64,000 nt of DNA, taken from NCBI GenBank assembly GCA_003597935.1, contig QZJT01000058.1, positions 3,639-67,638 of the forward strand, read 5' to 3'. This DNA is from Phycisphaerales bacterium (GTDB taxonomy: Bacteria; Planctomycetota; Phycisphaerae; UBA1845). Positions 2,144 to 53,998 of this stretch are shown here, one piece after another. The notes beneath the pieces were generated by a model that did no database searches, had not been told where the DNA came from, and saw only the letters and a program-made list of their open reading frames with translations. How positions within the stretch are numbered: position 1 is the first letter of the stretch; each line of letters begins with the position of its first letter. Made by a program: the position numbers and the translations under genes.

Positions 2144-2875
2144 TCAGGCGTCCGGCGCGAGCTGCCCCAGCCGCCGGCGCGCCAGATCGGCTGCGAACGT
2201 GCCGGGAAACCGGTCGATGGTCCGCCGATACCACGTCTCCGCCACCGCGATGAGCGCGTCGTTGCGGGCCATTTCGTCCGCCTGTCGCACCAGCGTCAGC
2301 CCGGCCGTGTTGAGTTCACGCTCCACGGACGCCAGCGGATCCTCGGTGGTTCGGACGTCCGCGGCGTCGGCGTCCATCCGGCGCATGGCCGCCGCGATCA
2401 GGCCGGCGATCCGGGCGTGGGCGTCCGCCTCGGCCCGCAGGCGGGCGATCTGTGCCCGCGCCGCCTCGGCAGAGTCCGAGTCCGGCCTCGCCTGCGCCTC
2501 GATCGAACCGGTCGCTGAGGACGTCCGTTCTGAACGCGCGTCCATCCGCCGGTCGGCCATCCACGCCGAGTCGTCCCGCTCGCTTCGAGGGGGCTGCCCG
2601 GGCGGCGATACGCGGGGCAGGATGATCGCCAGCGCGATCGCTGCCGCCAGCGGGCACGCCACGCAGCCGATGGTCCGCCGCACCACTCGCCGCCGTCGGT
2701 GGAGCTTTGCGACCCGGCGGGCGAGCGGTTCGACGTCGGTGGCCGCGCCTCCGTCCCAGGGATAGGCCGCCCGCAGCGCGGATGTGAACAGCTCGTCTGC
2801 ATCCGCAGCGGCACGACGGGGCACGCCTTGGCCGCTGCCGTCGCGGGTTTCGTGTTGTCGATGGCGGCGTGTCAT
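2144..2875 (-). CDS. putative anti-sigma factor, single-pass membrane protein
   Basis: Its ATG at 2875 overlaps the TGA of the upstream ECF sigma gene (ATGA, 2872-2875). It has one hydrophobic span (GCVACPLAAAIALAIILP). The call is positional. Confidence 0.5.
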   Translation of the reverse strand: MTRRHRQHETRDGSGQGVPRRAAADADELFTSALRAAYPWDGGAATDVEPLARRVAKLHRRRRVVRRTIGCVACPLAAAIALAIILPRVSPPGQPPRSERDDSAWMADRRMDARSERTSSATGSIEAQARPDSDSAEAARAQIARLRAEADAHARIAGLIAAAMRRMDADAADVRTTEDPLASVERELNTAGLTLVRQADEMARNDALIAVAETWYRRTIDRFPGTFAADLARRRLGQLAPDA

Positions 2876-3510
2876 GGTTTCGCCCCCAGCTCGCGCAATG
2901 GCGGTTCCAGTGCCCGCCGGGCGCGGCTGAGCCGTTGCTCGACCGTGTTGCGTTTCACTCCCAACACTTCTGCGATCCGATCGACCGGCCACTCTTCCAG
3001 GTAACGCAGGACGATGACCTCTCGATACCTGCGTGGCAGGCGGTCCACGGCGCGACGGACCGCTGCGGCGCGACGGGTTTCGTCGAAACGCTCCGCAGGA
3101 TCGGCGGCGTCGTCTGGCTCGCTGCCGCGCAGCGCAGCGGGTCCGCGGCTGATCAGGCGCGTCCAGCCCCGCTGCACGACGGCGGTGCGGTTCGCCCGCC
3201 GGCAGGCATGGATGGCGATCCGCGTCAACCAGGTCTGCACGGAGGCCTCGCCGCGGAACCGCCCGGCGCCGGACAGGGCGGCGACGAATACGCTCTGCAC
3301 CACGTCGTCGACGCGATCCCGATCGTGCAGCATCCGCGCCGCGAGCCGGGCCACGCCGTCGCGATGCCGACCGATCAGTTCGACGAGCGCGGCTCGGTCA
3401 CCGGCCGCCAGGTCGGCGGCGAGCCTTCGATCTTCGCCGGCCGCCTGCACGGGCGGATCGCCGTGACCCGCAGCCGTCGCCCGGATGGCGGGTGATGCGT
3501 CTGTCGTCAC
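2872..3510 (-). CDS. ECF-type RNA polymerase sigma-70 family factor
   Basis: Region 2 (DDVVQSVFVAAL, WLTRIAIHACRR) and region 4 (REVIVLRYLEEWPVDRIAEVLGVKRNTVEQRLSRAR) are present. There is no in-frame ATG near the domain start, so I propose the GTG at 3510. Confidence 0.8.
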   Translation of the reverse strand: MTTDASPAIRATAAGHGDPPVQAAGEDRRLAADLAAGDRAALVELIGRHRDGVARLAARMLHDRDRVDDVVQSVFVAALSGAGRFRGEASVQTWLTRIAIHACRRANRTAVVQRGWTRLISRGPAALRGSEPDDAADPAERFDETRRAAAVRRAVDRLPRRYREVIVLRYLEEWPVDRIAEVLGVKRNTVEQRLSRARRALEPPLRELGAKP

Positions 3511-3897
3511 CGACGTATTAGAGCATCGACCGGCGGTCTGCTGACAGACGGGGGTCGTTTTTTTCCCGCGCTCCGGCCCGGCGGCATTGCACCCGCCGCG
3601 CGCCGCGGCCCGGCGGAAGGGCGCGCTGCGAATCCTGTGAAATTTCCGCGGGAGCGTCGGGATCGAGGCGGAGGAAAGCTCGGATGGCGACGATGGCCCG
3701 TCGGCAAAAGAGCGGCCCTCATCGCGCCAGGCTGCGCCGTGACGGCACCGGCGGCGCGCGTCCGACCGGCTCGACCCTGACCTGCCTCCGGCCGCGGCGG
3801 CCGGGGCGAAGACCGCCGACCCGGACAAATCACAGAATCGTCCGGGCATTAAGAAAAACTCACCTCAATTTTATTTTGGAAAATCACGGATATTCCC

Positions 3898-3925
3898 TTG
3901 ACATCTTTCCGATCGAAGTTATGAA
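3898..3925 (+). promoter_or_regulatory. sigma70-like promoter in an unusually AT-rich patch upstream of the aminomutase cluster
   Basis: TTGACA (3898-3903), a 16-nt spacer, then TATGAA (3920-3925). It is preceded by the A/T-rich stretch 3841-3895. Confidence 0.4.
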
Positions 3926-4027
3926 TCCCGCGCAGTCTGAGGAGTCGGCGCGGCTGGTCACGAGTCTCGTCCGTGTGTCAATCGGACTGGCAGACCCGCC
4001 AGACTCCTCAAGAGGTCCATCTGAGTC

Positions 4028-5317
4028 ATGGACGAGCAATCCTCAGGCTCCGATCTGGAGCCTGGCGGCCTGAGCCGCAACACCATCAGCCTGAACGTAA
4101 TCGAGCGTGTTGACCTGTATGCGACGCGGCCGAACGGCGTGTCGCGAAAACAGGGCCTGTCCCGTGCGCGGCCGCGCAGCCCGGGCCGCAACCATCGGCC
4201 CACCGGCGCGTCCGCGAGGCCGCCGCGGGCCGAAGGTCCGTCGGTCCGGGAATGGAACGACTGGCGCTGGCAGCTTCGCCATCGCATCCGGGACTTGGAG
4301 GGCCTGGAGGAGGCGTTCCGCCTGACCGACGACGAGCGTCTGGCCGTCGAGCGCATCGGTGGGCACCTTCCGGTGGGCATCACGCCTTACTATGCCCGGC
4401 TGATCCGGGCGGACGACCCCGACGACCCCATCCGGCGCACCATGGTCCCGCAAACGGGGGAACTGGTGCAGGGTCCGGGCGAGGCGGACGATCCGCTGGC
4501 GGAGGACTCGCACATGCCGGTCCCCGGGCTGGTACACCGCTATCCGGACCGGGTGCTGTTCCTGGTGACCAGCTTCTGCGCCACCTATTGCCGCTACTGC
4601 ACCCGCGCGCGGCTGGTGGGCAAGACCGGCGAGTACCACTTCAACACGCAGCAGTACGAGCGGGCGCTGGACTATCTGCGCGAACACGCGGAGATCCGGG
4701 ACGTGCTGCTCTCCGGCGGCGACCCGCTGACCATGCAGGACGACCGGCTGGAGTGGATCCTGTCACGTCTGCGGGCGATTCCGCACGTGGAGTTCCTGCG
4801 CCTGGGGTCGAAGATCCCGGTTGTGCTGCCGCAGCGCATCACGCCGGAGCTGTGTCGGATGCTGCGGAAGTATCACCCCTTCTGGCTCAGCATCCACTTC
4901 ATGCACCCCAACGAGCTGACGCCGGAGGTGGCACGGGCGTGCGGACGGCTGGCCGACGCCGGCATCCCGCTGGGCGCGCAGATCGTCCTGATGCGCGGGG
5001 TCAACGACAGCGTCGAGACGATGAAGAAGCTCGTCCACGGGCTGCTGAAGAACCGGGTGCGGCCGTACTACATCTACCAGTGCGACCCCATCTCCGGCTC
5101 GGCCCATCTGCGGACGCCGATCGAGAAGGGCCTCGAGATCGTCGCCGGCCTGCGCGGCTTCACGACGGGTTACGCCGTGCCGACGTTCGTCGTGGACGCC
5201 CCGGGCGGCGGCGGCAAGATCCCGGTGTTCCCCGATACGCTCATCGGCCGTGACGGGGACCACGTGCTGTTCCGCAACTACGAGGGCAAGACCTATCGCT
5301 ATTACGACCCGGAATAG
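4028..5317 (+). CDS. kamA: lysine 2,3-aminomutase family radical SAM enzyme (KamA/AblA/EpmB-like)
   Basis: It carries the CATYCRYCTRA radical-SAM motif, the WNDWRWQLRHRI N-terminal signature and the SGGDPL and GGGGK motifs. The start could lie downstream of 4028, because the N-terminal roughly 80 aa are low complexity. Confidence 0.9.
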   Translation: MDEQSSGSDLEPGGLSRNTISLNVIERVDLYATRPNGVSRKQGLSRARPRSPGRNHRPTGASARPPRAEGPSVREWNDWRWQLRHRIRDLEGLEEAFRLTDDERLAVERIGGHLPVGITPYYARLIRADDPDDPIRRTMVPQTGELVQGPGEADDPLAEDSHMPVPGLVHRYPDRVLFLVTSFCATYCRYCTRARLVGKTGEYHFNTQQYERALDYLREHAEIRDVLLSGGDPLTMQDDRLEWILSRLRAIPHVEFLRLGSKIPVVLPQRITPELCRMLRKYHPFWLSIHFMHPNELTPEVARACGRLADAGIPLGAQIVLMRGVNDSVETMKKLVHGLLKNRVRPYYIYQCDPISGSAHLRTPIEKGLEIVAGLRGFTTGYAVPTFVVDAPGGGGKIPVFPDTLIGRDGDHVLFRNYEGKTYRYYDPE

Positions 5318-5351
5318 AATGGCGAATAACGAATAGCGAATAACGAATGAA

Positions 5352-5643
5352 GACGAGTCGCCCTAGCCGAACGGCGAGCGTAAGCGACCGGCTGCGCCGC
5401 AGGGCGTGCCCAATCCGAAGCGCGAGCGTAAGCGACCGGCTGTGCCACAGGGCGTGCGCAATCCGAACCGCGAGCGGAAGCGACCGGCCGCGCCACAGGG
5501 CGTGCGCAATCCGAACCGCGAGCGTAAGCGACCGGCCGGCCGGGTGAAGCGTGTGCGCGCAGGTGGACCGCTTAGCGTTGCAAGAGCCGCTTCCTGACGG
5601 GCGCGGTTCGGATTGGCCGCTTCCTGACGGGTGCGGTTCGGAT
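5352..5643. repeat. REP family A cluster: about four tandem 48-bp units plus two inverted copies
   Basis: Units containing CAATCCGAACCGCGAGCGTAAGCGACCGGC repeat across 5352-5545. Reverse-complement copies (CCGCTTCCTGACGGGCGCGGTTCGGATTGG) sit at 5584-5643. Confidence 0.8.
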
Positions 5644-5670
5644 GAACACGCTCATCTTCAGGCCAGAACC

Positions 5671-6210
5671 ATGTCGCATGTTACGCTTCCATTGATCGAT
5701 CACGTCTGGGGCTGCACGAAGTGCGCCCGGATCACGCGGACGTGCTGCCAGCGCTGTGAGGTCCTGGTCAGCGCCGGCGATCGCGAGCGCATCGCCGAGT
5801 ACACCGGCCGCACGGATTTCTGGTCCGACCGCGTGCCGGAGGACCCGGCCTACGCCGACCCGGGCGGCGATCCGAACTGGCGGGCGTGGGGATTTCACGC
5901 GGACGGAAGCCGCCCGACGCTGAATCGCCGACAGGACGGCGATTGCACGTTCTTGACCGCCACCGGCTGCTCGCTGCCGATGCACGTGCGGCCGCTGGTC
6001 TGCCGGCTCTATCCGTATACGTACACCGAGCACGGCGTCAACGGCGTTTCAGACGAGTGCCCGCGGGAGGTGGTCCCGCCGGGCGACAACATCCTCAACG
6101 TGCTCGACGTGCGTCGGGCGGACGCGGACCGCTGGCACCAGATGCTCTATGCGGAACTGCGCACGGGAAAACGAAGCGATGAACATCGGCCTTACCTACG
6201 ATCTGCGTGA
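5671..6210 (+). CDS. YkgJ/UPF0153-type cysteine-cluster (zinc/iron-chelating) protein
   Basis: The start MSHVTLPL lies after the repeat cluster. The Cys pattern is CTKC...TCCQRCE...CTFL..GC...VCRLYP. Confidence 0.65.
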   Translation: MSHVTLPLIDHVWGCTKCARITRTCCQRCEVLVSAGDRERIAEYTGRTDFWSDRVPEDPAYADPGGDPNWRAWGFHADGSRPTLNRRQDGDCTFLTATGCSLPMHVRPLVCRLYPYTYTEHGVNGVSDECPREVVPPGDNILNVLDVRRADADRWHQMLYAELRTGKRSDEHRPYLRSA

Positions 6211-7327
6211 CGACTACCTGGCGGCCGGCTACGGCGAGGAGGAGACTGCGGAGTTCGACCGCGCCGACACTATCGACCGGCTGGCGGAGGCGCTGCGGGC
6301 GCTGGGCCACGAGACCGATCGGATCGGGCGTGCGCCGCGGCTGATCGAGCGCGTCGCCGCCGGGGATCGGTGGGACCTGGTGTTCAACATCGCCGAGGGG
6401 CTGCGCGGCTACGGCCGCGAATCGCAGGTGCCGGCCATTCTGGACGTCTACGACGTCCCCTACACCTTCTCCGACGTGCTGACCTCCGCCCTGACGCTGC
6501 ACAAGGGGATGGCCAAGCGGGTGTTGCGCGACTGCGGCGTGGCGACCACGCCCTTTCACGAGGTGGCGACGCCGGCAGACCTCGATACGCTCTCGCTGCC
6601 CTGGCCGCTCTTCGTCAAGCCCGTCGCGGAAGGCACGGCCAAGGGCATCGACGGGGCGTCGAAGGTGACCAGCCGCGGCGAGCTGGAAGCGGCCTGCGCC
6701 CGCATCCACCGGCAGTTCGACCAGCCGGCGCTGGTAGAGCCCTTCCTGGCGGGCCGGGAGTTCACCGTCGGGATCACCGGCACGGGCGCGGAGGCCGTCG
6801 CCATCGGCACGTTGGAAGTCGAGCTGATCGGAGGCGCGGAGCCGCACTCCTACACTTACGTCAACAAGGAGCAGTGCGAGGAGCTGTGCCGCTATTCGAT
6901 CGCGCCGCGGCCGTGGTCGCTGCGCTGCGAGACGCTGGCGCTCAGTGCCTGGCGGGCGCTCCACTGTCGCGACGGCGGCCGCGTGGACCTGCGGGCGGAC
7001 GAGGCGGGCGAAGTGTACGTCATGGAGATCAATCCGCTGCCCGGGCTGCACCCGGAGCATTCCGATCTGCCGATCCTCTGTGGCCACGTCGGCATGGCGT
7101 ACGTGGACCTGATCGACCGGATCGTGTCGTCCGCCCGGCGGCGGGTGGACGCGATGAACGGCCGGAGGCCGGCCTCGGCGCGGCGGACGACGTCCGCGCT
7201 CAGCCGGGAAACCACGCCATCAAAGGTACACGCGGTCGGATCAGCGCCTTGCGGGCGCCTCAGCGCGGGCGACGGTCCGATCAGACCGGCGGACCGTCCG
7301 GCCGTCGCCGCACAGAGCGGGTCATGA
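6179..7327 (+). CDS. ATP-grasp ligase, D-alanine--D-alanine ligase-like
   Basis: MNIGLTYDL..., PLFVKPVAEGTAKGI, EFTVGI and EVYVMEINPLPGL are typical ATP-grasp elements. Its stop overlaps the next start (ATGA at 7324-7327). Confidence 0.8.
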   Translation: MNIGLTYDLRDDYLAAGYGEEETAEFDRADTIDRLAEALRALGHETDRIGRAPRLIERVAAGDRWDLVFNIAEGLRGYGRESQVPAILDVYDVPYTFSDVLTSALTLHKGMAKRVLRDCGVATTPFHEVATPADLDTLSLPWPLFVKPVAEGTAKGIDGASKVTSRGELEAACARIHRQFDQPALVEPFLAGREFTVGITGTGAEAVAIGTLEVELIGGAEPHSYTYVNKEQCEELCRYSIAPRPWSLRCETLALSAWRALHCRDGGRVDLRADEAGEVYVMEINPLPGLHPEHSDLPILCGHVGMAYVDLIDRIVSSARRRVDAMNGRRPASARRTTSALSRETTPSKVHAVGSAPCGRLSAGDGPIRPADRPAVAAQSGS

Positions 7328-8655
7328 AGGTCGCGATCCTGCACGACGCACTGACCGACGAAAGCCGTCCGGACGAGACGGATGCGCTGGTGCAGGCCCG
7401 GTACGTGACCGGAGCGCTCGACGCCCTGGGGCACAAGTCCATCACGCTGCCGGTCTCGCTGAACCTGGAGCGCCTGTCCCGTGCGCTCGATGCCGAGCGG
7501 CCGGACGTAGTCTTCAACCTGGTGGAGACGCTCGCGGGCCGCGGGCGCCTCTGTCACGTCGTGCCCGCGCTGCTCGATGCGCTGGGCGTCCCCTACACCG
7601 GCTCCGACGGCCATGCGCTGTTTCTGACCACCGGCAAGACGCAGACCAAGGAGCAGTTGGTCCGCGGCGGGTTGCCCACGCCGCCGTGGTATGCGCCCCG
7701 CGACCTGCGCGAGGGCTGCGGCGAACCGCGGGGGTTCTCCTCTGAGCCGCGGGCTTCAGCCCGCGCGGAGCATCGCACACAGGCACGCGTTTCGTGCGGC
7801 GCGGCGAGTCCGGCGCGGACGCTGCAGGGCGACGGAGCGATGGACGGGATGGACAGAATGGACAGGATGGACGAGATGGACGGGATGGACCTGCAGAACC
7901 CGAACGAGGCGGGGAGCGTTACTGCACCGAATTGGGCGATCCGCTTTCCAGCCACCGTGATCCTCAAGCCGACCTGGGAGGATGCCTCCGTCGGGATCGA
8001 CGATGATTCAATCATCGCGGTGCGGGATGAAGCCGAACTGGCTGCCGTCCTCCGCGAGCGAACGCGACGTTACCAGCAGGAGCAGCGCGGCGAGGCAACA
8101 CAGCCCGGCGAGGCAACACAGCGCGGCGAGCCAACGCAGCGCGGTGAACGAACGCGACGTTACCAGCAGGAGCAGCGCGGCGAACCGGCGCGGCGCTTCG
8201 GGGACGAGTTGTTCGCCGAGGCGTACATCGACGGCCGTGAGTTCAATCTGTCGCTGCTGTGCGGCCCCCGCGGTCCGCAGGTGCTGCCGCCGGCCGAAAT
8301 CGACTTCGTTGACTACCCGCCGGAAAAACCGCATATCGTCGGATACGCCGCCAAGTGGGACGACCGGGCGTTCGAGTATCACGCCACGCCGCGCCGGTTC
8401 GACGTCGACGAGGCCGACCGCGGGCTGGTCGAGACGCTTCGAGCGCTGGCGGTCCACTGCTGGCGTCTGTTCGATCTGCGCGGCCACGTCCGCGTGGACT
8501 TCCGCGTGGACGAGCGGAATCAGCCGTGGATCCTGGAGGTCAACGCCAATCCGTGCCTGTCGCCGGAAGCCGGCTTCATGGCGGCCGCTGCCCGCGCCGG
8601 CCTGACGATCGAGCACGTGGTCGAACGCCTGCTCCGTGACGCCGTCGGCTCGTAG
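7324..8655 (+). CDS. second ATP-grasp ligase (Ddl-like) carrying two in-frame repeat insertions
   Basis: MKVAILHDAL..., VILKPTWEDASVGI, GREFNLSLL and PWILEVNANPCLSPEAGF are present. The repeat insertions lie at about 7720-7950 and 8050-8190. Confidence 0.75.
   Translation: MKVAILHDALTDESRPDETDALVQARYVTGALDALGHKSITLPVSLNLERLSRALDAERPDVVFNLVETLAGRGRLCHVVPALLDALGVPYTGSDGHALFLTTGKTQTKEQLVRGGLPTPPWYAPRDLREGCGEPRGFSSEPRASARAEHRTQARVSCGAASPARTLQGDGAMDGMDRMDRMDEMDGMDLQNPNEAGSVTAPNWAIRFPATVILKPTWEDASVGIDDDSIIAVRDEAELAAVLRERTRRYQQEQRGEATQPGEATQRGEPTQRGERTRRYQQEQRGEPARRFGDELFAEAYIDGREFNLSLLCGPRGPQVLPPAEIDFVDYPPEKPHIVGYAAKWDDRAFEYHATPRRFDVDEADRGLVETLRALAVHCWRLFDLRGHVRVDFRVDERNQPWILEVNANPCLSPEAGFMAAAARAGLTIEHVVERLLRDAVGS
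7744..7769. repeat. REP family B hairpin (short form) inside the ATP-grasp CDS
   Basis: GAGCCGCGGGCTTCAGCCCGCGCGGA, read in frame as EPRASARA. Confidence 0.8.
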
Positions 8656-8721
8656 GAATCCGCCGAAGCACGGCCGCGCGTTCCTCATTCGTTATTCACC
8701 GCCGGCCATTCGTTAATCTCC

Positions 8722-10620
8722 ATGTTCCGCATCCGCCGCATCTACGACGATTTGATCCCCATCGACGAGCGACAGATCGCTCAGATCCAGCAGATCCTGC
8801 GGCAGCAGTTCCCCGGCGCCACCGAAGCCCAGATCGCCGCCCTGCCGGAAATGCTCCGCAACCCGTTCAAGCACCGCTTCCGCGCCGTGCTCTACGTCGC
8901 CGACGACGCCCAGGGGACCGTGCGCGGCTTCGCCCTGGCGTTCCACGAACCGCAGCTCAAGTTCTGGTATCTCGACTTCATCGCCGCCGGCACCCAGGGG
9001 ACGGGGGGCGGCGTCGGCGGAGCGCTCTATGCCCAGGTGTGCGAGGAGGTTGTCCGCAGCGGGGCGATCGGCCTTTTCTTCGAATGCGCCCCCGACGACG
9101 ACGTGGACGACAAGGCCGTGCTCAAGCAGAACATCGCCCGGCTGCGCTTCTATGAGCGTTTCGGCGCCCGGCCGCTGGACAACAACGACTATCGCAGACC
9201 GGTCTGGCCCGGCCAGCGCGAACTGCCGTTCCTGATGTTCGACGATCAGGAGCGGGGCAAGCCGCTGCGGCGGCAGCAGGTGCGCGAGGTCGTGCGCGCC
9301 GTGCTCGAACGCAAATACGGCGACGTGTGCTCACCTGAATACGTCGACGCCGTCGTCGCGTCGTTCAGGGATGACCCCGTTCGCCTCCGCCCGTTCCGGT
9401 ACGTGAAACCCAACGCGGTGGCCGCGAGCGGCGACGATGCTGTACAGACCCCTCCGGAAACAGGCGCTACCACGGCGGAGGGCAGGCTGGAAGCCCGCGG
9501 CAGAAAGGCGGACGCCCGCGCCCCCGCGCCCCCCCGGCCGCGCATCGCCCTGGTCGTCAACGACAAGCACGACATTCACCACGTCAGGGAGCGCGGATAC
9601 GTGGAAGCGCCCGCCCGCGTGCGGGTGATCCTCAAGGAGATTGAAAAGACCGGTCTGTTTCGGCCCGTTCCGCCGCGCAGCTTCCCGGACCGCCACGTCC
9701 TCGAAGTCCACGAGCGCGGATTCGTGGAATACCTGAAACGGACCTGCCAGACCGTCCCCGCCGGCAAGTCGGTCTACCCTTACGTCTTTCCGATCCGCAA
9801 CCAGGCGCGGCCCCCGAAGGAACTCGCCATCCGTGCCGGCTACTACTGCATCGACACGTTCACGCCGCTGAACCGCAACGCGTATCCTGCCGCCAAGCGG
9901 GCGGTGGACTGCGTGCTGACCGCGGCCGAGGAGATCCTGCGCGGCGATCGGCTCGCCTACGCCCTCGTCCGCCCGCCGGGGCACCACGCCGAGCGGCGCT
10001 CGTTCGGCGGGTTCTGTTACTTCTGCAACGTGGCGATCGCGGCCCAGTTCTTCAGCCCGCACGGCCGGGTGGCGATCCTGGACGTCGATTACCATCACGG
10101 CAACGGACAGGAAGAGATCTTCTACGAGCGCGACGACGTGCTGACCGTCTCCATCCACGGCCATCCCCGCTTCGCCTACCCCTACTTCAGCGGCTTTCAG
10201 GACGATCGGGGCCTCGGCCAGGGAGAAGGGTACAACGCCAACTATCCTCTGCCGGAGCGCGTGGACGGCGAGCGGTATCGCCGCACCCTGGCGCAGGCGC
10301 TGCGGCGCATCCAGCGCTTCGCTCCTCGTTTTCTGATCGTGGCGTTGGGTCTGGACACGGCCCGCGGCGACCCGACCGGCTCGTGGTCGCTCTCCGCCTC
10401 GGACCTGGAGCGGAACGGGCGGTTGATCGGCGGGCTTCGCCTGCCGACATTGGTGGTACAGGAAGGCGGCTACCGGACCCGCACGCTGGGCGTGAACGCC
10501 CGTCAGTTCTTCGTGGGGCTGGCGGCCGCGGATGACCTCCGCGACGGCGGAAAGCGGACTCGGAACAGGACTTCGGGGCAGGGACGCACGGCCCCCAAAG
10601 GGAGCGTTGAAGCCGGATGA
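8722..10620 (+). CDS. fusion protein: N-terminal GNAT-like acyltransferase plus C-terminal histone-deacetylase-family amidohydrolase
   Basis: The N-terminus has YLDFIAAGTQGTGGGVGGALY...RLRFYERFGARPL (GNAT core). The C-terminus has RPPGHHA, DVDYHHGNGQ, GLDTARGDP and QEGGY (HDAC/acetylpolyamine amidohydrolase motifs). Confidence 0.85.
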   Translation: MFRIRRIYDDLIPIDERQIAQIQQILRQQFPGATEAQIAALPEMLRNPFKHRFRAVLYVADDAQGTVRGFALAFHEPQLKFWYLDFIAAGTQGTGGGVGGALYAQVCEEVVRSGAIGLFFECAPDDDVDDKAVLKQNIARLRFYERFGARPLDNNDYRRPVWPGQRELPFLMFDDQERGKPLRRQQVREVVRAVLERKYGDVCSPEYVDAVVASFRDDPVRLRPFRYVKPNAVAASGDDAVQTPPETGATTAEGRLEARGRKADARAPAPPRPRIALVVNDKHDIHHVRERGYVEAPARVRVILKEIEKTGLFRPVPPRSFPDRHVLEVHERGFVEYLKRTCQTVPAGKSVYPYVFPIRNQARPPKELAIRAGYYCIDTFTPLNRNAYPAAKRAVDCVLTAAEEILRGDRLAYALVRPPGHHAERRSFGGFCYFCNVAIAAQFFSPHGRVAILDVDYHHGNGQEEIFYERDDVLTVSIHGHPRFAYPYFSGFQDDRGLGQGEGYNANYPLPERVDGERYRRTLAQALRRIQRFAPRFLIVALGLDTARGDPTGSWSLSASDLERNGRLIGGLRLPTLVVQEGGYRTRTLGVNARQFFVGLAAADDLRDGGKRTRNRTSGQGRTAPKGSVEAG

Positions 10621-11138
10621 GCACGAATCTTTCCAAAATCCCGGTGGCGCCGCCGTCGGACGTTTACCTGCGTCGGCTGCTGCGGGCCACCGACGTACAC
10701 GCCCTCGAAGCCCTGCTGACCGCCACCGGGATGTTCGCCCCGCACGAGGTCGAGGTCGCGCTGGAACTGGTCCACGACTTCCTCTCCCGCGGCGAGCTGA
10801 GCGGCTACTGGTTCACGGTGGCCGAGGATGACGCCGGGCGGGTGGTGGGGTACACGGCCATCGGGCCGATCCCCTGCACGGTGGCCAGCTACGACATCTA
10901 CTGGATCGCGGTGCAGCCGGATTGCCAGGGCTGCGGCATCGGGCGGCGGCTGATGGAGGAGGCGGAGGAGCGCATCCGCGCCGCCGGGGGCGCACGGGTG
11001 TTCATCGACACCTCCGGCCGGGCGCAATACGCCCCCACGCGCGCCTTCTACGAACGGTGCGGCTATCGCGTGGAAGCGACGCTCTGCGATTTCTACGCCC
11101 CCGGTGATGACAAGGTCGTGTACGGCAAGGTCCTGTAG
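10617..11138 (+). CDS. GNAT family N-acetyltransferase
   Basis: There is an ATGA overlap with the upstream gene. IAVQPDCQGCGIGRRLM and RAFYERCGY are GNAT motifs. Confidence 0.8.
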   Translation: MSTNLSKIPVAPPSDVYLRRLLRATDVHALEALLTATGMFAPHEVEVALELVHDFLSRGELSGYWFTVAEDDAGRVVGYTAIGPIPCTVASYDIYWIAVQPDCQGCGIGRRLMEEAEERIRAAGGARVFIDTSGRAQYAPTRAFYERCGYRVEATLCDFYAPGDDKVVYGKVL

Positions 11139-11140
11139 GG

Positions 11141-12973
11141 CTACTCGCCGTCCTCGTCGTTCTTGCTCTGCTTCTGGGCGACCTTCCGCTCCACGACCTT
11201 GTCGAGGGCGACGCGCTGTGGCTCGTCCAGGGCGTTGCGGACGCGCTCGACGACGCGCTGGCGCGTGTCACGCCGCGCCTGGTTCCGCTCCGCTTCGTCG
11301 TCGATCCTGTCGATTTCGCGGAACCGGGCGCGGGCGTCATTGAAGATCCCGGACAGCAGCCGGCGCTGATCCGCGGAGAGGCCCACCTCCGGCTCATTGG
11401 CGGCCGAGAAGAACTCGGCCAGACTCAGCCCCGTGATGCTGGCCTCGGAGGGCCCGGGCTGGTCGTCGTCGTCGATGTAGCCAAGCCCTTTGAGCCGGTC
11501 GTGCTCCGCGCGTTGCTCCGGCGTCATCTCGTCGATGGCCCGCTCCGGGTTCTTGAGTTCCCACTTGCCCTGGTCGATCCAGCGCTGCACCAGCGGCCTG
11601 AGCTGCGCCACCACGTCCGCGTGTTTGTCCGCGACGTTGGTCAATTCCTGCGGGTCGCTGTCCAGATTGAACAACTTGATCTCGTCGGTCGGGTACTTCG
11701 GCTTTCCGACCTGGGCGATCAGCTTCCACGGCCCGCGCCGCACCATGATCTCGCGGTTGTGGGCGTCTTCGTGGATCAGCGTGGTGCGCCGGCTGAGCGC
11801 GGGGCTGGGGCGGCCCATCAGTACCTCGGTCAGGTTCAGGCCGTGCATGGGAAGCCCCTCGGGCTGCCGCACCTGCACGCCGAAGAGGTGGCACATCGTC
11901 GGAACCAGGTCGATCTGGCACACGCGGTCCTCGATCCGCAGCCCCGTGGGCATGCCGGGCATGCGGATGATGAGCGGCACGTGGACCGACGGCTCGTACA
12001 GCCCCATGTGGTCGAAATAGACGTTGTGATCGCCCAGGCACTCTCCGTGGTCCGCCACCACGACGATGCCGGTCGTGTCGTACAGACCGCGGTCTTTCAT
12101 CCCCTGGATAAAACGGCCCAGCTCGTGGTCCGTGTAGTTGAGTTCCCCTTTGTACATCGCGGGCGGGTAGGCCGGGTCGCGAACCTCGCTGAATTGTTTG
12201 AGCACCACCTGCGGCGCGCGGCGGAAGAACTCGTTCTCGTGGAACGGCGGCGCCTCGCCCGCGTACGGGTCGCCCTGGTAGAACTTCCTGGCGTACTCCT
12301 CCGGCGGGTCGTACTCCATGTGGGGGTCGAAGACGTGCAGCCACATGAAGAAGGGCTTGTCCGACGGCTGGTCCAGCCACTTCAGGGCCTTGTCCACCAT
12401 CTCGCCCGCCACCGGCTCACCGATCATTTCGTTCGGCTCGTCGAAGCCGGGCAGGGCCAACGTCGCGTCGGAGACGTGCCGGATCGCCGGGAACCCGACG
12501 CTGCGATAGCCCGCCCGCTGGAACGCGGCTGGCAGCGTGTCCACGCCCGGGTTGTGCTTCGGTAGCGAGGTCTGGTTGTTCATCACCTTGGCGTCGATGG
12601 CGTAAAGCCCGGTGAAGATCGACGTGTGGCTGGGGTTGGTGACGTTGGTCTGGCTGTAGGCGCGCAGGAAACGGGCGCCTTCGCTGGCCAGCTTCTCCAG
12701 ATTGGGGGTTAGCCCGTCGGCCCGCTCGTCGCCGATGCCCGAGATCAGGTCCGCCCGCGTGGTGTCCATCGTGACGATGATGAGGTTTTTACCCTTCATC
12801 GCCGCGACCATCGCCCCTTCCTCCACGGCCGCCGGCTGGGTCTGGCCGGCCGCCAGTTGCGGCAGCCGCCCGCCCGCCCGAATGAAGGTGAGCACGGCCA
12901 CGCAGAGAATCCCCGCCGCCACGGTACGGCAGCGTCCGGTATAGACGCGGGACGATTGCGGTGTCCTGCTCAT
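11141..12973 (-). CDS. sulfatase-like alkaline-phosphatase-superfamily hydrolase with a coiled C-terminal extension
   Basis: The ATG at 12973 is followed by a signal/TM segment. IIVTMDTTRAD and VVADHGE are metal-site motifs. The signature position reads VTNPSHTSIFTG instead of C/S-x-P-x-R. Confidence 0.85.
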   Translation of the reverse strand: MSRTPQSSRVYTGRCRTVAAGILCVAVLTFIRAGGRLPQLAAGQTQPAAVEEGAMVAAMKGKNLIIVTMDTTRADLISGIGDERADGLTPNLEKLASEGARFLRAYSQTNVTNPSHTSIFTGLYAIDAKVMNNQTSLPKHNPGVDTLPAAFQRAGYRSVGFPAIRHVSDATLALPGFDEPNEMIGEPVAGEMVDKALKWLDQPSDKPFFMWLHVFDPHMEYDPPEEYARKFYQGDPYAGEAPPFHENEFFRRAPQVVLKQFSEVRDPAYPPAMYKGELNYTDHELGRFIQGMKDRGLYDTTGIVVVADHGECLGDHNVYFDHMGLYEPSVHVPLIIRMPGMPTGLRIEDRVCQIDLVPTMCHLFGVQVRQPEGLPMHGLNLTEVLMGRPSPALSRRTTLIHEDAHNREIMVRRGPWKLIAQVGKPKYPTDEIKLFNLDSDPQELTNVADKHADVVAQLRPLVQRWIDQGKWELKNPERAIDEMTPEQRAEHDRLKGLGYIDDDDQPGPSEASITGLSLAEFFSAANEPEVGLSADQRRLLSGIFNDARARFREIDRIDDEAERNQARRDTRQRVVERVRNALDEPQRVALDKVVERKVAQKQSKNDEDGE

Positions 12974-13323
12974 AATGACCTTTCGGGCTTCGGCGCCGCC
13001 GGCGCGCGATGCAAAAGACCTATCGGAAACCGCGCCGGAGACGATAAGGCGGGGCGGCCGCCGCCCTCCGCGTTTCACGCGGATCACGCCTCGGGTTAGT
13101 GGACCCTGGGGCGCACTCTCTCCCTATGGCGCCTGGGCAGGCGGCTTCCTCCGCCGACCCTACCGCCACAACGAGCGCCGCCGTCCGCTATTGCCCGTGA
13201 GCCGGGTCAGACGCCCGCCCCGCTCCACTCCCGGCCTTGGATGGACCGTGGGCGTCATCGGGGCGCGCGCGTGCTTCCGGCCACGCCAGCACCGCTTTTC
13301 CAGGCCCGCGCCGGACCGGCGCG

Positions 13324-19896: not shown

Positions 19897-20038
19897 CCAA
19901 TCCGAACCGCGACCGTAAGGGAGCGGCCCTGCCTGGGCGCAGCTATTTCTGCGCTTGGCCCGCCGCAGATTCCCCTAGCACGTGCGAACGCCGCAGCGCC
20001 GTCCAGAAGCCGCTTCCTTACGGGCGCGGTTCGGATTG
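19897..20038. repeat. inverted pair of REP family A elements around an 83-bp core (BIME/MITE-like)
   Basis: CCAATCCGAACCGCGACCGTAAGGGAGCGG (19897-19925) pairs with CCGCTTCCTTACGGGCGCGGTTCGGATTGG (20009-20038). Confidence 0.8.
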
Positions 20039-20051
20039 GTATTCCCCGTTC

Positions 20052-32129: not shown

Positions 32130-33392
32130 ATGCGCAGGCAATGGAGATGGGTTTGGACATGGGTAGCGTTTGCCGTCACTACGACCCCGGTGCTCCCGGC
32201 GGCGCCCATCGCGGACCGCGGCGGCTCGCAGGCGGCGACGTGCCGGTCGCTGCGGCGTTTCGCCAAGGTAACCGTCTGCAAACCGGGCGGCGTGGAAACG
32301 GGGTTCTTCACCGGTGACGATGACAATGGCGGCGCGCGGTTGACCCTCAAGAACGGGACGAAGGACAACAACGAGACGATCGTCCTCGATGGAAATCACC
32401 TTGGCGACGCCGCCGGCCTCATGCGCCTGGGCACATCAACCCTGAATGATTCCATCGTTCTGGACGCGTTCTCTATCGATCGGGGCGCGTTTATAAACAT
32501 AAAGAACTCCTCGACCGGTACAATAAACATGTTCGGTGGTGTTGGTGATGACGGTGCGCGAGTATCCCTAGGCAATGGGCAGATAAATCGGGAGACGATC
32601 TCTCTGGATGCACGGGCCGAAAGAGACTCAGGAATGATCACGCTTCACGACGGATTCGGCAATCCCACGCTTCAACTCATGGGCGCTCGGAACGATCAAC
32701 CGGAGCAGAATGGAGGGTTCCTCCGCATTACCAAGGACGGAACAGCTCGAATAGATATGTTGGCTGATGTTGTGGAGAACGGCCCTTACATTTCGATGCT
32801 GAATAGCGCGTTGAATGGAACCGTTTCTCTAGCTGCTGGTCAAGGAGTGCCTGGGGCGGGCGGAAGGATCACACTCGGTCCATTCGGCGGCGGTTCATCC
32901 ATTGTGTTAAACGGTGCGACTGGGAACATCTGCGCGAACGAATTCAAGGGTATACATTCAGCTCCGGGAAACTGCGCCGACCTCGCCGAGCATTTCGACC
33001 ACTCCGACCCCGCGGTCGTGCGGCCCGGCATGGTCATGGTCATCGACGCGGCCAATGCAGGGCATTTGACGGTCAGCATGCGGGCCTATGACACCAAGGT
33101 GGCGGGAATCGTCTCCGGCGCTGGTGGACTGCAGGCCGGTATGGTGTTGGGAGGGTCGGACTCTGAAGGCGATGACTTGCCCGTCGCGCTGACCGGGCGC
33201 GTCTACTGCTACGTCGATGCGACCGAAGAGCCGATCGAGGTCGGCGACCTGCTCACCACCTCGAATACGCCGGGTCACGCGATGAAGGTGACCGACTTCG
33301 CCCGTTCGCAAGGCTGCGTGCTGGGCAAGGCCATGCAGCCGATAGAAAAGGGCAAGAAGGGCCTGATCCTGGTGCTGGTGGCGTTGCAGTGA
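32130..33392 (+). CDS. secreted repeat protein with a conserved fibre-type C-terminal domain
   Basis: AGGAGG lies 7 nt before the ATG. It has an N-terminal hydrophobic segment and Asn/Gly-rich repeats. The C-terminus DLAEHF...KVAGIVSG...VALTGRVYCYVD...GDLLTTSNTPGHAMK...GKAM...LVLVALQ recurs at the ends of fibre/adhesin-like proteins, by recollection. Confidence 0.6.
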   Translation: MRRQWRWVWTWVAFAVTTTPVLPAAPIADRGGSQAATCRSLRRFAKVTVCKPGGVETGFFTGDDDNGGARLTLKNGTKDNNETIVLDGNHLGDAAGLMRLGTSTLNDSIVLDAFSIDRGAFINIKNSSTGTINMFGGVGDDGARVSLGNGQINRETISLDARAERDSGMITLHDGFGNPTLQLMGARNDQPEQNGGFLRITKDGTARIDMLADVVENGPYISMLNSALNGTVSLAAGQGVPGAGGRITLGPFGGGSSIVLNGATGNICANEFKGIHSAPGNCADLAEHFDHSDPAVVRPGMVMVIDAANAGHLTVSMRAYDTKVAGIVSGAGGLQAGMVLGGSDSEGDDLPVALTGRVYCYVDATEEPIEVGDLLTTSNTPGHAMKVTDFARSQGCVLGKAMQPIEKGKKGLILVLVALQ

Positions 33393-33544
33393 TCGACCGT
33401 GCTCCAAGAAAGGGAAGGCAGGCGCGCCGCAGGCCCGAGGGCGGACTCCTCCCTGCCCCGGGCTGCGGACGACTTGGTCCAGGAGGTCATGATCGCCGCG
33501 GTGCAGACGTTGCGTGTGTGGCGTACGGCGCCGGGAACGGTCTT

Positions 33545-33977
33545 TCACGGCGTGAGAAGCTCGAACGCGCCGAACGTGGAAAAATCTCCGGCGTTCGAGG
33601 TCATGATCCGGCGGACCCCGGCGCTGTACAGCGACGCCGCGAGGTGGGTGTCGATGATGCGTTTGCGCCCCAGTCCGTATTTCGACATCCACTCGAGGAC
33701 GAGATCGATCGCTTCTTGCCCCCGGCGTCACGACCCGGACCTCGCGAGCGCGGAACCAGAAACGTGCGCGGACCATCGCGTCCGCCATAGACAGAGGGCG
33801 GGGGAAACGCCTGCCGTCGGTGACGACGTGCAGGAATTCCAAAACGACGTGCGGCGTGAGCGCCACGGTGTCGCCCGCATCCAGAACCTCGCGTTGGAAC
33901 AATGCACGGGCCTTTGCGTGTCCGGGTACATCGGACACTTCAAGCTGGACCAGAACCGACGTGTCGAGCCCGATCAT
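33545..33977 (-). pseudogene. vapC: PIN-domain VapC-type toxin interrupted by a +1 frameshift in a G5 run
   Basis: MIGLDTSVLV...VVTPG runs in one frame. QEAIDLVLEWMSKYGLGRKRIIDTHLAASLYSAGVRRIMTSNAGDFSTFGAFELLTP-stop runs in the next. The span is 433 nt (3n+1). The shift site is the C5 run at 33719-23 on the plus strand. Confidence 0.75.
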
Positions 33978-34201
33978 GAACGCAGCATCTCGTCCAGGAG
34001 GTCGTCGTCGCGCACCACGCGGCGAAGCGGGGGGCCCAACGAGGTGGGCTTGTGGTCACGCAGTGACGGGCGCTCCTCCACGCCGGAGAGGCGCGCCACC
34101 GGACGGTCGCCATCCGTGATCAGGATCTCGCCGTACAATGGCAATTGCTCGACAAGTTCGGCGAGATCAACTTTGGCATTATGAATGTCGACCGTTTGCA
34201 T
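33974..34201 (-). CDS. Phd/YefM-type antitoxin
   Basis: MQTVDIHNAKVDLAELVEQL..ILITDGDRPVARL. Its stop overlaps the vapC start (ATGA at 33974-33977). Confidence 0.7.
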   Translation of the reverse strand: MQTVDIHNAKVDLAELVEQLPLYGEILITDGDRPVARLSGVEERPSLRDHKPTSLGPPLRRVVRDDDLLDEMLRS

Positions 34202-34630: not shown

Positions 34631-34785
34631 GTCGGGCGACCGGCTGACCACCTCGAATACCATTGGCCACGCGATGAAAGTCACCGACTTCGCTCGTTCG
34701 CAGGGCTGCGTGCTCGGCAAGGCCATGCGGCCGCTGGAGAAGGGCAAGAAGGGATTGATCCTTGTGCTGGTGGCGTTGCAGTGAC
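34631..34785 (+). pseudogene. orphan 3' fragment of a paralogue of the 32130-33392 gene
   Basis: It translates to SGDRLTTSNTIGHAMKVTDFARSQGCVLGKAMRPLEKGKKGLILVLVALQ-stop. It aligns to 33237-33392 with about 20 differences in about 150 nt. An in-frame TAA lies immediately upstream. Confidence 0.75.
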
Positions 34786-34902
34786 CTACCGTTCCCATTC
34801 CCGCCGACTGGAGCGGTGGGTTTGTGTGTTGTAGTTTCCGCGGTCCGCGCGTCCGCGGCCGTGCATGCCTGATGTGCATCCGCACAGGCATTGGAGTGAC
34901 AC

Positions 34903-49656: not shown

Positions 49657-50691
49657 TTAGGGCTCAGTCTGGGGTGGTTGCGATGCGTCGGGCACATAAT
49701 CGAACACCTGCAAACGTTGATTGTATGAGTCGCAGATCCAGATGCGGTCCGTGTCGTCGATGAAGATGCCTCCGGGCAGCCAGAACTGGCCCGGGCCGGT
49801 CCCCTCTTCGCCGAAGGTCAGCAGCAGCCGGCCCTGGCGATCGAAGATCTGCACGTTCTCGAAGCGGGCGTCCACCACGTAGACGTGTCCGTCGCGGTCC
49901 AGCGCGATCGCCTTGGGCAGGGCCAGGTCTCCGAAGGCGTCCCCCGCCTGCCCGAAGGCCGCTTGCGGCGCTGCCAGTCGCGACAGGCGCTGCACGCGAT
50001 GGTTGCCGGCGTCGACGACCCACACGTCCTCTCCGGCGACGACCAGATCGCAGGGGAAGTTGAACTCCCCGGCGCCGCCGCCGCGCCGTCCCAGCGTGCG
50101 CACGGGCCGCCCGTCGGCGGTCAGGACCTTGACGTCATGGGCCAGCACGTCCACGACGTACAGCTCGCCGACCGCGTCGTCCCAGAAGACGCTCACCGGC
50201 CTCTGCACGTCGTCGGGCAGCGCCAGGGCCGAGTCGCTTCCGCCGTTTTCTGGCGAAACGCGGTAGACGGCGCCTTCTTCCGAGTCGCAGACGTACACGG
50301 CGCTGCCCGGCCCCACGCAGACGTCGACCGGCGTCAGCAGCGCGGCGTCGCCGACGTGCGTGATCCTGCGGTGCTGGCGGCGCTGCAGATCGAACAGGTG
50401 GACGCAGCGCCAACCGGGATCCGCCACCCACACGTATCGTCCGTCGCGGGACCGGACCGCGGAACGCGGACCGTTCAGCCGGTCCGGTTCCTTCGAGCCC
50501 AGCAGCAGGCCGCCCAGCCCCTCGAAGGGCTTGGGCGCCGGGCGCAGGTCGGCCGAGGTGCTGATCTGCCCGACGTAGCGGATGCGGGCCGGCTGACCGT
50601 CCGACGGCCACACGATCTGCGGGTGGGTCTCCTCGAAGATCGGCTTCAGCGGGCGCTGGCAGCCGGCGGTGACGAGTGCGATGGCGATCAT
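49657..50691 (-). CDS. NHL-repeat beta-propeller lipoprotein
   Basis: The ATG at 50691 gives MIAIALVTAGC (lipobox). NHL-like blades include RYVWVADPG, AVYVCDS, ELYVVDV, DVWVVDAGNHRVQRL, HVYVVDARFENVQIF and RIWICDSYNQRLQVF. Confidence 0.8.
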   Translation of the reverse strand: MIAIALVTAGCQRPLKPIFEETHPQIVWPSDGQPARIRYVGQISTSADLRPAPKPFEGLGGLLLGSKEPDRLNGPRSAVRSRDGRYVWVADPGWRCVHLFDLQRRQHRRITHVGDAALLTPVDVCVGPGSAVYVCDSEEGAVYRVSPENGGSDSALALPDDVQRPVSVFWDDAVGELYVVDVLAHDVKVLTADGRPVRTLGRRGGGAGEFNFPCDLVVAGEDVWVVDAGNHRVQRLSRLAAPQAAFGQAGDAFGDLALPKAIALDRDGHVYVVDARFENVQIFDRQGRLLLTFGEEGTGPGQFWLPGGIFIDDTDRIWICDSYNQRLQVFDYVPDASQPPQTEP

Positions 50692-50733
50692 CGTCAGCGC
50701 GAATGTCAGGAGAGGCGTTGCGGGGTGGCCCGT

Positions 50734-50808
50734 GCAATCCGAACCGCGACGGTGAGGGAGCGGGCCGGGCGCGATCTCGCTATCCGAACCGCGACCGTAA
50801 GGGAGCGG
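50734..50808. repeat. two REP family A copies
   Basis: GCAATCCGAACCGCGACGGTGAGGGAGCGG and CTATCCGAACCGCGACCGTAAGGGAGCGG. Confidence 0.75.
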
Positions 50809-51056
50809 CTTCTGCAGAGCGTTCACATCTGGAACGCGTTTCGAATCGTGGGAGAGCGCGCCGTGATCCACGCCTCCTCCGCCCCTTCGGGGCGGACGGT
50901 TGGGGGGGGGCGCTATCCACGGGTTCCGCTTCACCCGCCTTACGGCGGGCTTCGCTCCACCCGTGGCTACACTCCTTGGCCCCTCCGGAGCCGCAGAGTG
51001 GGCCCATGGCCCCTGCGAGGCAGCGGACTCGGCCGATGCCCCCTCCGGGGCCGCAG

Positions 51057-51176
51057 ACACCGGTTCAAAACCGGTGCCACACGGAGACACCGGTTCAAAA
51101 CCGGTGCCACACGGAGACACCGGTTCAAAACCGGTGCCACACGGAGACACCGATTGAAAACCGGTGTCACACGTGG
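51057..51176. repeat. four tandem 30-bp units, each with an internal hairpin (CACCGG-TTCAAAA-CCGGTG)
   Basis: ACACCGGTTCAAAACCGGTGCCACACGGAG occurs three times, followed by one degenerate copy. On the minus strand each unit reads TGGCAC-N5-TTGA. Confidence 0.85.
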
Positions 51177-53975: not shown

Positions 53976-53998
53976 GGCCGGCCCTTCTTACGTCGCGA

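Follow-up and report, generated by a model that had tools for sequence, protein, structure and literature searches.

A widespread cluster of a lysine 2,3-aminomutase, two Ddl-fold ATP-grasp ligases and acetyl enzymes, with a candidate route to an N-acetylated beta-lysine compound

The cluster and its predicted enzymes

The 64,000-nucleotide stretch of Phycisphaerales DNA analyzed here (contig QZJT01000058.1 of assembly GCA_003597935.1, positions 3,639 to 67,638; hereafter the window) carries at 4028-11138 a cluster of six genes on the plus strand (Table 1). These encode a lysine 2,3-aminomutase of the KamA family, a small Cys-rich protein, two ATP-grasp ligases with the fold of D-alanine--D-alanine ligase (Ddl; the two are called AG1 and AG2), a fusion of a GNAT acetyltransferase with an HDAC-type deacetylase (GNAT-HDAC), and a small GNAT. 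The original prediction for this DNA described six tightly packed, partly overlapping genes, five of which it named. Open reading frame (ORF) calls confirm the arrangement, with the ATG of AG1 lying 32 nt inside the preceding ORF (stop codon 6208-6210) and ATGA start/stop overlaps at 7324-7327 (AG1/AG2) and 10617-10620 (GNAT-HDAC/small GNAT), except that the close packing is broken twice, by a spacer of 353 nt behind the aminomutase gene and a gap of 66 nt before the fusion (8656-8721). Pfam and NCBIfam searches bear out the five domain assignments, and the member left unnamed is probably a divergent YkgJ-type Cys-cluster protein. No obvious export signals were seen in any cluster protein when the translations were read directly.

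Table 1. Coordinates of the cluster genes and flanking features in the window
Feature	Position	Strand	Annotation
Gene 1, lysine 2,3-aminomutase (KamA family)	4028-5317	+	Pfam Radical_SAM and LAM_C
Gene 2, putative YkgJ/CxxCxxCC-type Cys-rich small protein	5671-6210 (alternative start GTG 5551)	+	Orthologues match PF03692
Gene 3, AG1, Ddl-fold ATP-grasp ligase	6179-7327	+	Dala_Dala_lig_C PF07478, E 2e-27
Gene 4, AG2, Ddl-fold ATP-grasp ligase	7324-8655	+	Dala_Dala_lig_C PF07478, E 3e-15
Gene 5, GNAT-HDAC fusion	8722-10620	+	Hist_deacetyl PF00850, E 5e-72, plus N-terminal GNAT
Gene 6, small GNAT, 173 aa	10617-11138	+	PF13508/PF00583, E 1e-16
Promoter and 5' leader of the aminomutase gene	3850-4027	+	AT-rich, TTGACA-N16-TATGAAT
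Spacer with REP-like repeats	5318-5670		Between the aminomutase and YkgJ genes
ECF sigma factor gene	2872-3849	-	Divergent from the cluster
Sulfatase-family gene	11141-13087	-	Converges on the cluster end
Window as a whole			~68% G+C; closest relatives are Phycisphaerae/Planctomycetota metagenome-assembled genomes (MAGs)

Conversion of L-lysine to beta-lysine is a well-supported prediction for the aminomutase. The protein passes the KamA family model (TIGR00238; 360 bits versus a cut-off of 199) and fails the EpmB model (TIGR03821; 254 bits versus a cut-off of 369), as do five orthologues from other phyla, and it shares 55% identity (458 bits) with the lysine 2,3-aminomutase (LAM) of C. subterminale (PDB 2a5h) compared with 34% for E. 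coli EpmB. In LAM, Arg134 binds the carboxylate, Asp293 and Asp330 hold the lysine epsilon-ammonium group and Lys337 binds pyridoxal phosphate; both of the aspartates are replaced in glutamate 2,3-aminomutase. The equivalents of all four residues (R134, D293, D330, and K337 in C. subterminale numbering, from the 2a5h alignment) are kept in the cluster enzyme, together with the CxxxCxxC motif. It is a short form with an N-terminal extension of ~70 aa and no C-terminal Zn domain: the inter-subunit Zn site (Cys268 plus Cys375/377/380) is missing, Cys268 being replaced by Ser and the protein stopping at about LAM residue 369. The absence of this domain explains why the window protein (482 bits) and the five orthologues (473-496 bits) score under the cut-off of 525.4 bits for the AblA model TIGR03820, the match of the window protein ending at about model position 362 of 417.

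Public databases label both ligases simply 'D-alanine--D-alanine ligase'. Judged by their residues, the two appear catalytically intact yet are not bona fide Ddl enzymes. AG1 reaches 152 bits with NF002378 (cut-off 243) and 122 bits with TIGR01205 (cut-off 246), AG2 reaches 89 and 74 bits with the same models, and the orthologues from other lineages, at 103-192 bits, also remain under the Ddl cut-offs. The catalytic residues K97, K144, E180, E187, K215, R255, D257, E270, and N272 (E. coli DdlB numbering) are kept in AG1, AG2, and 28 ligase orthologues, the one exception being the replacement of E270 by Asp in some AG2-type sequences. At the substrate positions, AG1 has Glu in place of Y216 (Trp or Arg in other types) and Asp in place of L282, directly after S281, and AG2 has Trp in place of Y216 (within an invariant K-W signature), Ala in place of S150, and A-G in place of S281-L282. 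In Ddl, Glu15 binds the amino group of the donor and the S281-L282 loop binds the carboxylate of the second D-Ala. AG1 retains an E15-like 'AE.D' motif, and E15 is not conserved across AG2-type proteins; these differences weakly suggest that AG1 may act on a cationic substrate with a free amino group, most obviously beta-lysine, and that AG2 may act on a donor that its GNAT partner supplies in N-blocked form. The AlphaFold2 model of AG1 has a mean confidence (pLDDT) of 84; the lid and the C-terminal tail are disordered, and the best PDB matches are all Ddl/VanA structures (TM-score ~0.8, identity 24-27%). Assignment to bona fide cell-wall Ddl was rejected on the grounds of scores far under the cut-offs and replaced D-Ala-binding residues. 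The enzyme classes assumed in the original prediction are thus upheld, the aminomutase falling on the LAM/AblA side and not with EpmB by model scores, identity, and lysine-binding residues, and the ATP-grasp proteins differing from true cell-wall Ddl in their low scores and changed substrate residues.

The AG2 of this genome also contains two low-complexity inserts of ~85 and ~40 aa, positioned in surface loops of the Ddl fold, which its orthologues do not have. The inserts are lineage-specific and of the types MDGMDRMDRMDEMDGMD and GEATQ/RGEPTQ/RRYQQEQRGE; tandem repeats of 9-bp and 18-bp units in the DNA (7839-7890 and 8082-8155, within the region 7690-8230) code for them.

Databases name the GNAT-HDAC fusion 'acetylpolyamine amidohydrolase' (APAH), and the best PDB matches of its HDAC domain are indeed APAH structures (6phr, 9gkz, 3men, and 3q9b; E 1e-60 to 6e-70), with which the C-terminal 330 aa align end-to-end (E 6e-70). 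The alignment with 6phr places RPPGHHA, DVDYHHGNG, LGLDTARGDP, and QEGGY together, so that the active site (tandem His, the D-H-D Zn ligands, and the catalytic Tyr of EGGY) is complete. The genomic context suggests an acetylated beta-lysine derivative, instead of polyamines, as the substrate. The N-terminal 240 aa are modeled with confidence (pLDDT 91) as a generic GNAT fold in which the Q-x-x-G-x-G and N..R..FYE motifs are intact; Foldseek matches of this domain include nourseothricin/OrfE acetyltransferases, and it was seen solely within the fusion family, a Rosetta-stone search having returned fragments of that same family.

The small GNAT matches PDB entry 2r7h (E 1.9e-38), an orphan structural-genomics structure of D. 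desulfuricans DDE_3044 deposited as 'putative D-alanine N-acetyltransferase', and is an orthologue of that protein. Its NCBIfam matches are weak and generic (e.g., rimI, the best, at 48 bits versus a cut-off of 86; streptothricin acetyltransferase models at E ~3e-3; the GNAT part of TIGR03103 at 19.8 bits, cut-off 569, E 2e-4). Acetyl-CoA motifs are intact in both GNATs, and neither GNAT matched a beta-lysine acetyltransferase model in NCBIfam at E <= 0.01, a collection which presumably includes TIGR03827. Fold searches returned generic GNAT and Ddl matches only and no specific subfamily of either. No database record was found with the exact sequence of the small GNAT of the window. The scan with this protein did not retrieve the D. 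alaskensis G20 locus, the nearest match being a 73%-identical sequence from an Oleidesulfovibrio MAG, and a paper mentioning Dde_3047 was set aside as dealing with an unrelated phosphatase.

The YkgJ copy of the window has no Pfam or NCBIfam match, even at E <= 10. Its assignment comes from orthologues at three other loci (L002, L016, and L068) that pass PF03692 (25.6-27.1 bits versus a cut-off of 23), orthology being based on tblastn identities of 39-60% and on conserved position.

Conservation and modular composition

Relatives of the cluster were sought in one genome per GTDB species using the GNAT-HDAC fusion, AG1, and the small GNAT as anchors. At least 575 species-level genomes encode relatives of the fusion, and tblastn with the six window proteins over the best 80 of these loci recovered the same genes, with the order kept or permuted; the complete set surrounds the fusion in 37 of the 46 loci flanked by 5 kb or more on each side. 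With AG1 as the anchor at least 573 relatives were found, including one in the cultured Desulfosarcina variabilis Montpellier, and many of these loci have the layout KamA-(YkgJ)-AG1-AG2-GNAT with no GNAT-HDAC nearby. The loci anchored on the small GNAT show KamA-AG1-AG2-GNAT-GNAT_HDAC in Desulfovibrionaceae and AG1-AG2-GNAT-KamA in Bacteroidota, Calditrichota, Ignavibacteriota, and Verrucomicrobiota, and also comprise 23 Anaerolineae/Chloroflexota loci that consist of one ligase and a GNAT, with the aminomutase absent. Reciprocal blastp groups this lone Anaerolineae ligase with AG2 and sets the AG1 proteins of every cluster type apart as a group of their own. The small GNAT directly adjoins an AG2-type ligase in nearly all loci. 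Carriers of the cluster belong to Planctomycetota, Desulfobacterota, Acidobacteriota, KSB1, Calditrichota, Dehalococcoidia, Bacteroidota, Ignavibacteriota, Verrucomicrobiota, Krumholzibacteriota, and other groups. Co-localization is strongly conserved across more than 10 phyla and hundreds of mostly anaerobic bacterial species.

Gene content was counted over 116 loci with margins of at least 3 kb, pooled from the three anchor sets, which overlap slightly. Two ligases, KamA, a GNAT, and GNAT-HDAC are present together at 42 loci, and the same set without GNAT-HDAC at 33, so that aminomutase, two ligases, and GNAT co-occur in 75 of the 116. The remaining loci hold one ligase and a GNAT (18), a GNAT only (10), GNAT-HDAC only (6), two ligases and a GNAT with no KamA (3), or other combinations (4). 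KamA therefore accompanies the two ligases in 75 of 78 two-ligase loci, and the single-ligase loci pair an AG2-type enzyme with a GNAT and have no KamA; at L048, where KamA is missing, no replacement enzyme was found in its place. These counts indicate a modular anatomy, with AG2 and the GNAT as an old pair and KamA and AG1 as a second unit. Found in only 42 and 12, respectively, of the 75 complete clusters, the fusion and the YkgJ gene are read as accessories; the YkgJ gene lies every time between KamA and AG1. GNAT-HDAC also occurs solo, in neighborhoods unrelated to one another.

The conservation data both strengthen and trim the original prediction. Its expectation that the genes would be found together in related genomes holds in related and very distant genomes alike with all three anchors. 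Of the single set that it proposed, the core of aminomutase, two ligases, and GNAT stands, and the fusion falls outside the universal core. Its beta-lysine route with two ligases is narrowed: AG2 and the GNAT exist without an aminomutase in Anaerolineae, and only AG1 is therefore specifically tied to beta-lysine. The cycling through acetylated intermediates that it envisaged is reduced to an optional layer at most, because the fusion is not nearby in 33 of the 75 complete clusters.

All-versus-all clustering of the ORFs from three sets of ~80 loci (ORFs of at least 80-100 aa) revealed no further conserved neighbors, carrier proteins, or precursor peptides; besides the cluster genes, it gave lineage-specific transporters and regulators only. 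The inter-gene gaps of most loci are too short to hold a conserved small gene. The Dehalococcoidia version of the cluster includes an inserted gene for a MarC-family membrane protein, and in four loci from different lineages a major facilitator superfamily (MFS) transporter adjoins it. Both kinds of neighbor are compatible with a small-molecule product.

Proposed pathway and competing explanations

The cluster is proposed, with about even confidence, to encode a cytoplasmic pathway to a small N-acetylated amide or peptide containing beta-lysine. The proposal builds on the gene content, catalytic competence, lysine specificity determinants, and modular co-inheritance described above; the order of its steps, the group joined by each ligase, and the partner amino acids are inferred. 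The KamA-type enzyme would turn L-lysine into beta-lysine, after which AG1 would use ATP to form an acyl-phosphate and then an amide bond involving beta-lysine. AG2 and the small GNAT would supply or extend an N-acetylated amino-acid partner, in a manner resembling Ngg or N-acetylaspartylglutamate (NAAG) synthesis. Where present, the GNAT-APAH fusion could remove or re-position an acetyl group on a terminal alkyl-amine (e.g., the epsilon-amine of beta-lysine) for deprotection, turnover, or recycling, and the YkgJ-type protein may be an optional helper, such as an electron donor for the radical-SAM cluster or a tailoring enzyme. A small-molecule product is favored because no conserved extra gene, carrier ORF, or efp accompanies the cluster, transporters are adjacent at some loci, and the proteins have no obvious export signals. 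Among possible physiological roles, that of a compatible solute or a nitrogen-rich, polyamine-like metabolite of anaerobes is tentatively ranked first. The broader suggestion that these genes define an unrecognized, widespread class of metabolites in hundreds of anaerobes from sediment, groundwater, and bioreactors, such as an N-acetylated beta-lysine di- or tripeptide or a beta-lysyl-amine that acts as a major compatible solute or polyamine surrogate and is remodeled by the fusion, is made with somewhat less than even confidence.

Several observations weigh against parts of this proposal. The record titles of carriers include groundwater, peat (SPRUCE), and bioreactor MAGs; since the carriers are thus not restricted to saline habitats, an osmolyte role is not specially favored. 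The substrate assignments of the ligases depend on alignment positions in flexible loops, and the lid of the AG1 model is of low pLDDT. The acetyl acceptor may not be beta-lysine, because AG2 and the GNAT work without beta-lysine in some lineages. Finally, the identity of GNAT-HDAC across phyla (54-67%) is about that of AG1 and far above that of AG2, and this conservation, together with the solo occurrence of the fusion, could mean that it has a more general, possibly protein-directed function.

AblA/AblB, PylB/PylC, and the Ngg/NAAG synthetases are each partly similar to the cluster, which belongs to none of these systems. As in AblA/AblB, a LAM-type aminomutase stands beside a GNAT, AblA is the best NCBIfam model of the aminomutase, and the lysine-binding residues are kept. 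However, the cluster aminomutase lies under the AblA equivalog cut-off and lacks the C-terminal Zn domain, the GNAT is of the 173-aa 2r7h type and has no match to the AblB model, and the cluster has two obligatory ATP-grasp ligases, the conserved partner of the GNAT being AG2 rather than the aminomutase. P. carbinolicus has a plain ablA-ablB pair only. The logic of PylB/PylC is similar, in that a radical-SAM rearrangement of lysine is followed by amide ligation by a Ddl-like ATP-grasp enzyme, but PylB is not of the KamA family, and the cluster has two ligases and GNATs and no PylD-like dehydrogenase; no PylC model was among the NCBIfam matches of AG2 (all 17) or of AG1 (the best 25 of 31). With the synthetases of N-acetylglutaminylglutamine amide (NAGGN; Ngg) and NAAG, the conserved pair of AG2 and GNAT shares the combination of N-acetylation from acetyl-CoA with ATP-grasp ligation. 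The cluster differs from them in having separate genes, a ligase of Ddl type instead of RimK type, no amidotransferase, and an added beta-lysine module, so that homology is at the superfamily level only and the resemblance is one of logic.

Single components can be compared in the same manner. The HDAC domain keeps every catalytic and Zn residue of APAHs (class IIb HDAC-like), but it is fused to an apparently active GNAT and its context is a beta-lysine cluster rather than polyamine genes. The ligases share with Ddl/Van enzymes the fold (TM-score ~0.8) and the full ATP-grasp catalytic apparatus, but their identity is only 24-33%, positions E15, S150, Y216, and S281-L282 are altered in a family-specific way, and a mur/dcw context is absent. 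In EpmA/EpmB, too, the beta-lysine that becomes amide-linked to a lysine side chain comes from an aminomutase of the KamA family; in contrast, neither EpmA nor efp is linked to the cluster, and its aminomutase is nearer to LAM than to EpmB. The aminotransferase, CoA-transferase subunits, and M20 deacetylase of the Bacillus kamA operon (yodT-kamA) are not among the conserved neighbors in the three locus sets. The original prediction placed the gene combination outside three known beta-lysine routes; in agreement, searches of the accessible literature found no description of the cluster or the combination, although it may have been predicted in silico before.

Four other explanations of the same genes were weighed. 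In the first place, beta-lysine, with or without an acetylated partner, could be ligated to a protein such as a translation factor or a ribosomal protein, with the GNAT and the GNAT-HDAC as writer and eraser. The beta-lysylation of elongation factor P (EF-P) provides a precedent, profile scans gave weak TTL and RimK-like matches for AG2 (RimK and TTL are ATP-grasp enzymes that modify proteins), RimI is the best NCBIfam match of the small GNAT, and the fusion shows high conservation between phyla and is able to stand alone. Nevertheless, modification of a protein is judged unlikely: no EpmA-like gene or other conserved candidate substrate gene was found in 238 loci and the 64-kb window, efp was not found by tblastn with E. 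coli EF-P in the window and the first 80 related loci, and the enzymes themselves point elsewhere, with an aminomutase that is LAM-like and not EpmB-like, ligases of the Ddl type (the small-molecule branch, with best structural matches that are all Ddl/VanA), and an HDAC domain nearest to small-molecule APAHs. An antibiotic-like product is slightly less probable still. On this view the product would be a cationic peptide with beta-lysine, loosely resembling streptothricin, from which the producer protects itself by N-acetylation and which the deacetylase activates. Beta-lysine peptide antibiotics are known, as are GNATs that confer resistance by acetylating their beta-lysine, and transporters are occasionally adjacent to the cluster. 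The weak streptothricin acetyltransferase matches of the small GNAT and the nourseothricin/OrfE matches of the N-terminal GNAT fit such a product, but they are weak and generic, and a dedicated exporter is absent in most loci. The cluster has spread vertically, in a highly conserved form, through many phyla and hundreds of species, and it has no variable tailoring genes and no nonribosomal peptide synthetase or polyketide synthase; this pattern is typical of a physiological role and not of chemical warfare.

The Ddl fold, the Ddl-like catalytic residues, and the database names of both ligases might instead suggest a part in making or altering a peptidoglycan stem or cross-bridge that contains beta-lysine, and ATP-grasp enzymes do add D-Asp to peptidoglycan precursors in some Gram-positives. 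Such an envelope function is improbable, given that the ligases fall far short of the Ddl cut-offs (152 and 89 bits versus 243), as in other lineages, that the residues binding D-Ala are replaced, and that ORF clustering found no mur, fem, or other envelope gene linked to the cluster at any locus; moreover, the cluster occurs in Dehalococcoidales, which are generally considered to be wall-less. The least probable of the four, and very unlikely on present evidence, is catabolism or salvage, in which lysine or acetylated polyamines would be degraded through beta-lysine and N-acetyl intermediates with the APAH releasing acetate. An APAH-type deacetylase and GNATs are present, and there is precedent for acetylation and deacetylation steps in the Bacillus kamA operon and in the Pseudomonas N6-acetyl-beta-lysine pathway. 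However, a degradative route would have no use for two ligases that consume ATP, an aminotransferase, a CoA-transferase, a 3-keto-acid cleavage enzyme, and KamD/E are all missing from the conserved set, and the deacetylase is dispensable in 33 of the 75 complete clusters.

If the proposed small N-acetylated beta-lysine product is real, an uncatalogued beta-lysine compound would be made by a large group of anaerobes of ecological importance, among them sulfate reducers, Planctomycetota, Dehalococcoidia, Bacteroidota, and a number of candidate phyla. Hundreds of genes now annotated as 'D-alanine--D-alanine ligase', 'acetylpolyamine amidohydrolase', and 'ablA' would then need re-annotation, and inferences of N-epsilon-acetyl-beta-lysine synthesis drawn from this aminomutase in metagenomes would need to be revisited. 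A function could be assigned to the orphan structure 2r7h, and the Ddl branch of the ATP-grasp superfamily would gain two substrate specificities useful for enzymatic beta-peptide synthesis. The hypothesis is directly testable because cultured carriers exist, namely Desulfosarcina variabilis and, through the origin of 2r7h, Desulfovibrio/Oleidesulfovibrio alaskensis G20.

Regulation, repeats, and flanking genes

The leader of the aminomutase gene is ~90% identical over its last ~190 nt to that of the closest relative (L241), and the sequences diverge further upstream. No Rfam family matched anywhere in the window at the gathering threshold, and hence no riboswitch or known RNA was found; at E <= 1, the region 3750-5700 gave two chance snoRNA matches only, and the folding of the leader is not significant (z = -1.1). 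The gene divergent from the cluster encodes an extracytoplasmic function (ECF) sigma factor and is also present in L241. It is listed as an ORF of 325 aa, with sigma domains only in the last ~170 aa, and the gene of the relative encodes 171 aa; in L241 (region 2745-5234) it is followed by two unannotated genes, possibly including an anti-sigma factor. This ECF sigma factor may be a lineage-specific regulator of the cluster. Elsewhere, sigma-54 activators lie near the cluster in nine loci, and 13 of 124 loci have a canonical sigma-54 promoter (TGGCAY-N5-TTGCW, 100-200 nt before the start) ahead of the aminomutase gene, versus ~0.9 expected, a ~15-fold excess. The loci concerned (L029, L034, L038, L052, L057, L073, L095, L099, L111, L113, L114, L122, and L151) belong to Desulfobacterota and one Rhodopirellula MAG.

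Repeats resembling repetitive extragenic palindromic (REP) elements fill the spacer that separates the aminomutase gene from the YkgJ gene. They consist of a 48-bp unit in 3.6 copies (5367-5538) and a 30-bp inverted unit in 1.9 copies (5586-5643) that are partly reverse-complementary to each other. Related copies occur elsewhere in the window as inverted pairs at 19902 and 19991 (19902-20039) and at 50784 (50784-50808). The spacer of L241 has no such repeats, which indicates a recent insertion inside the operon; they are lineage-specific and probably not part of the function. At the other end of the cluster, the converging sulfatase-family gene encodes a protein with a long, charged C-terminal tail. 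It is typical Planctomycetota content and marks the 3' operon boundary.

A ddl or dcw cluster was also sought in the window for comparison, and the candidate row at 49.6-63 kb proved to be a multihaem cytochrome cluster. This row (49657-62944, minus strand) contains multihaem cytochromes with paired CXXCH domains, NHL-repeat beta-propeller proteins, and a TPR-redoxin, and adjoins a histidine kinase and a sigma-54-dependent response regulator; it is possibly an extracellular or periplasmic electron-transfer module of a Phycisphaerae-like genome. A 30-bp tandem repeat, CGGAGACACCGGTTCAAAACCGGTGCCACA, in ~4-5 copies with a short palindrome in each unit, lies at 51022-51171, at or slightly within the 5' end of the ORF at 49657-51288 (minus strand). 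In addition, a 158-nt direct repeat of 87% identity is found at 33243-33400 and 34635-34792, the two copies lying 1.4 kb apart at or near the starts of the ORFs 33399-34184 and 34903-38919.

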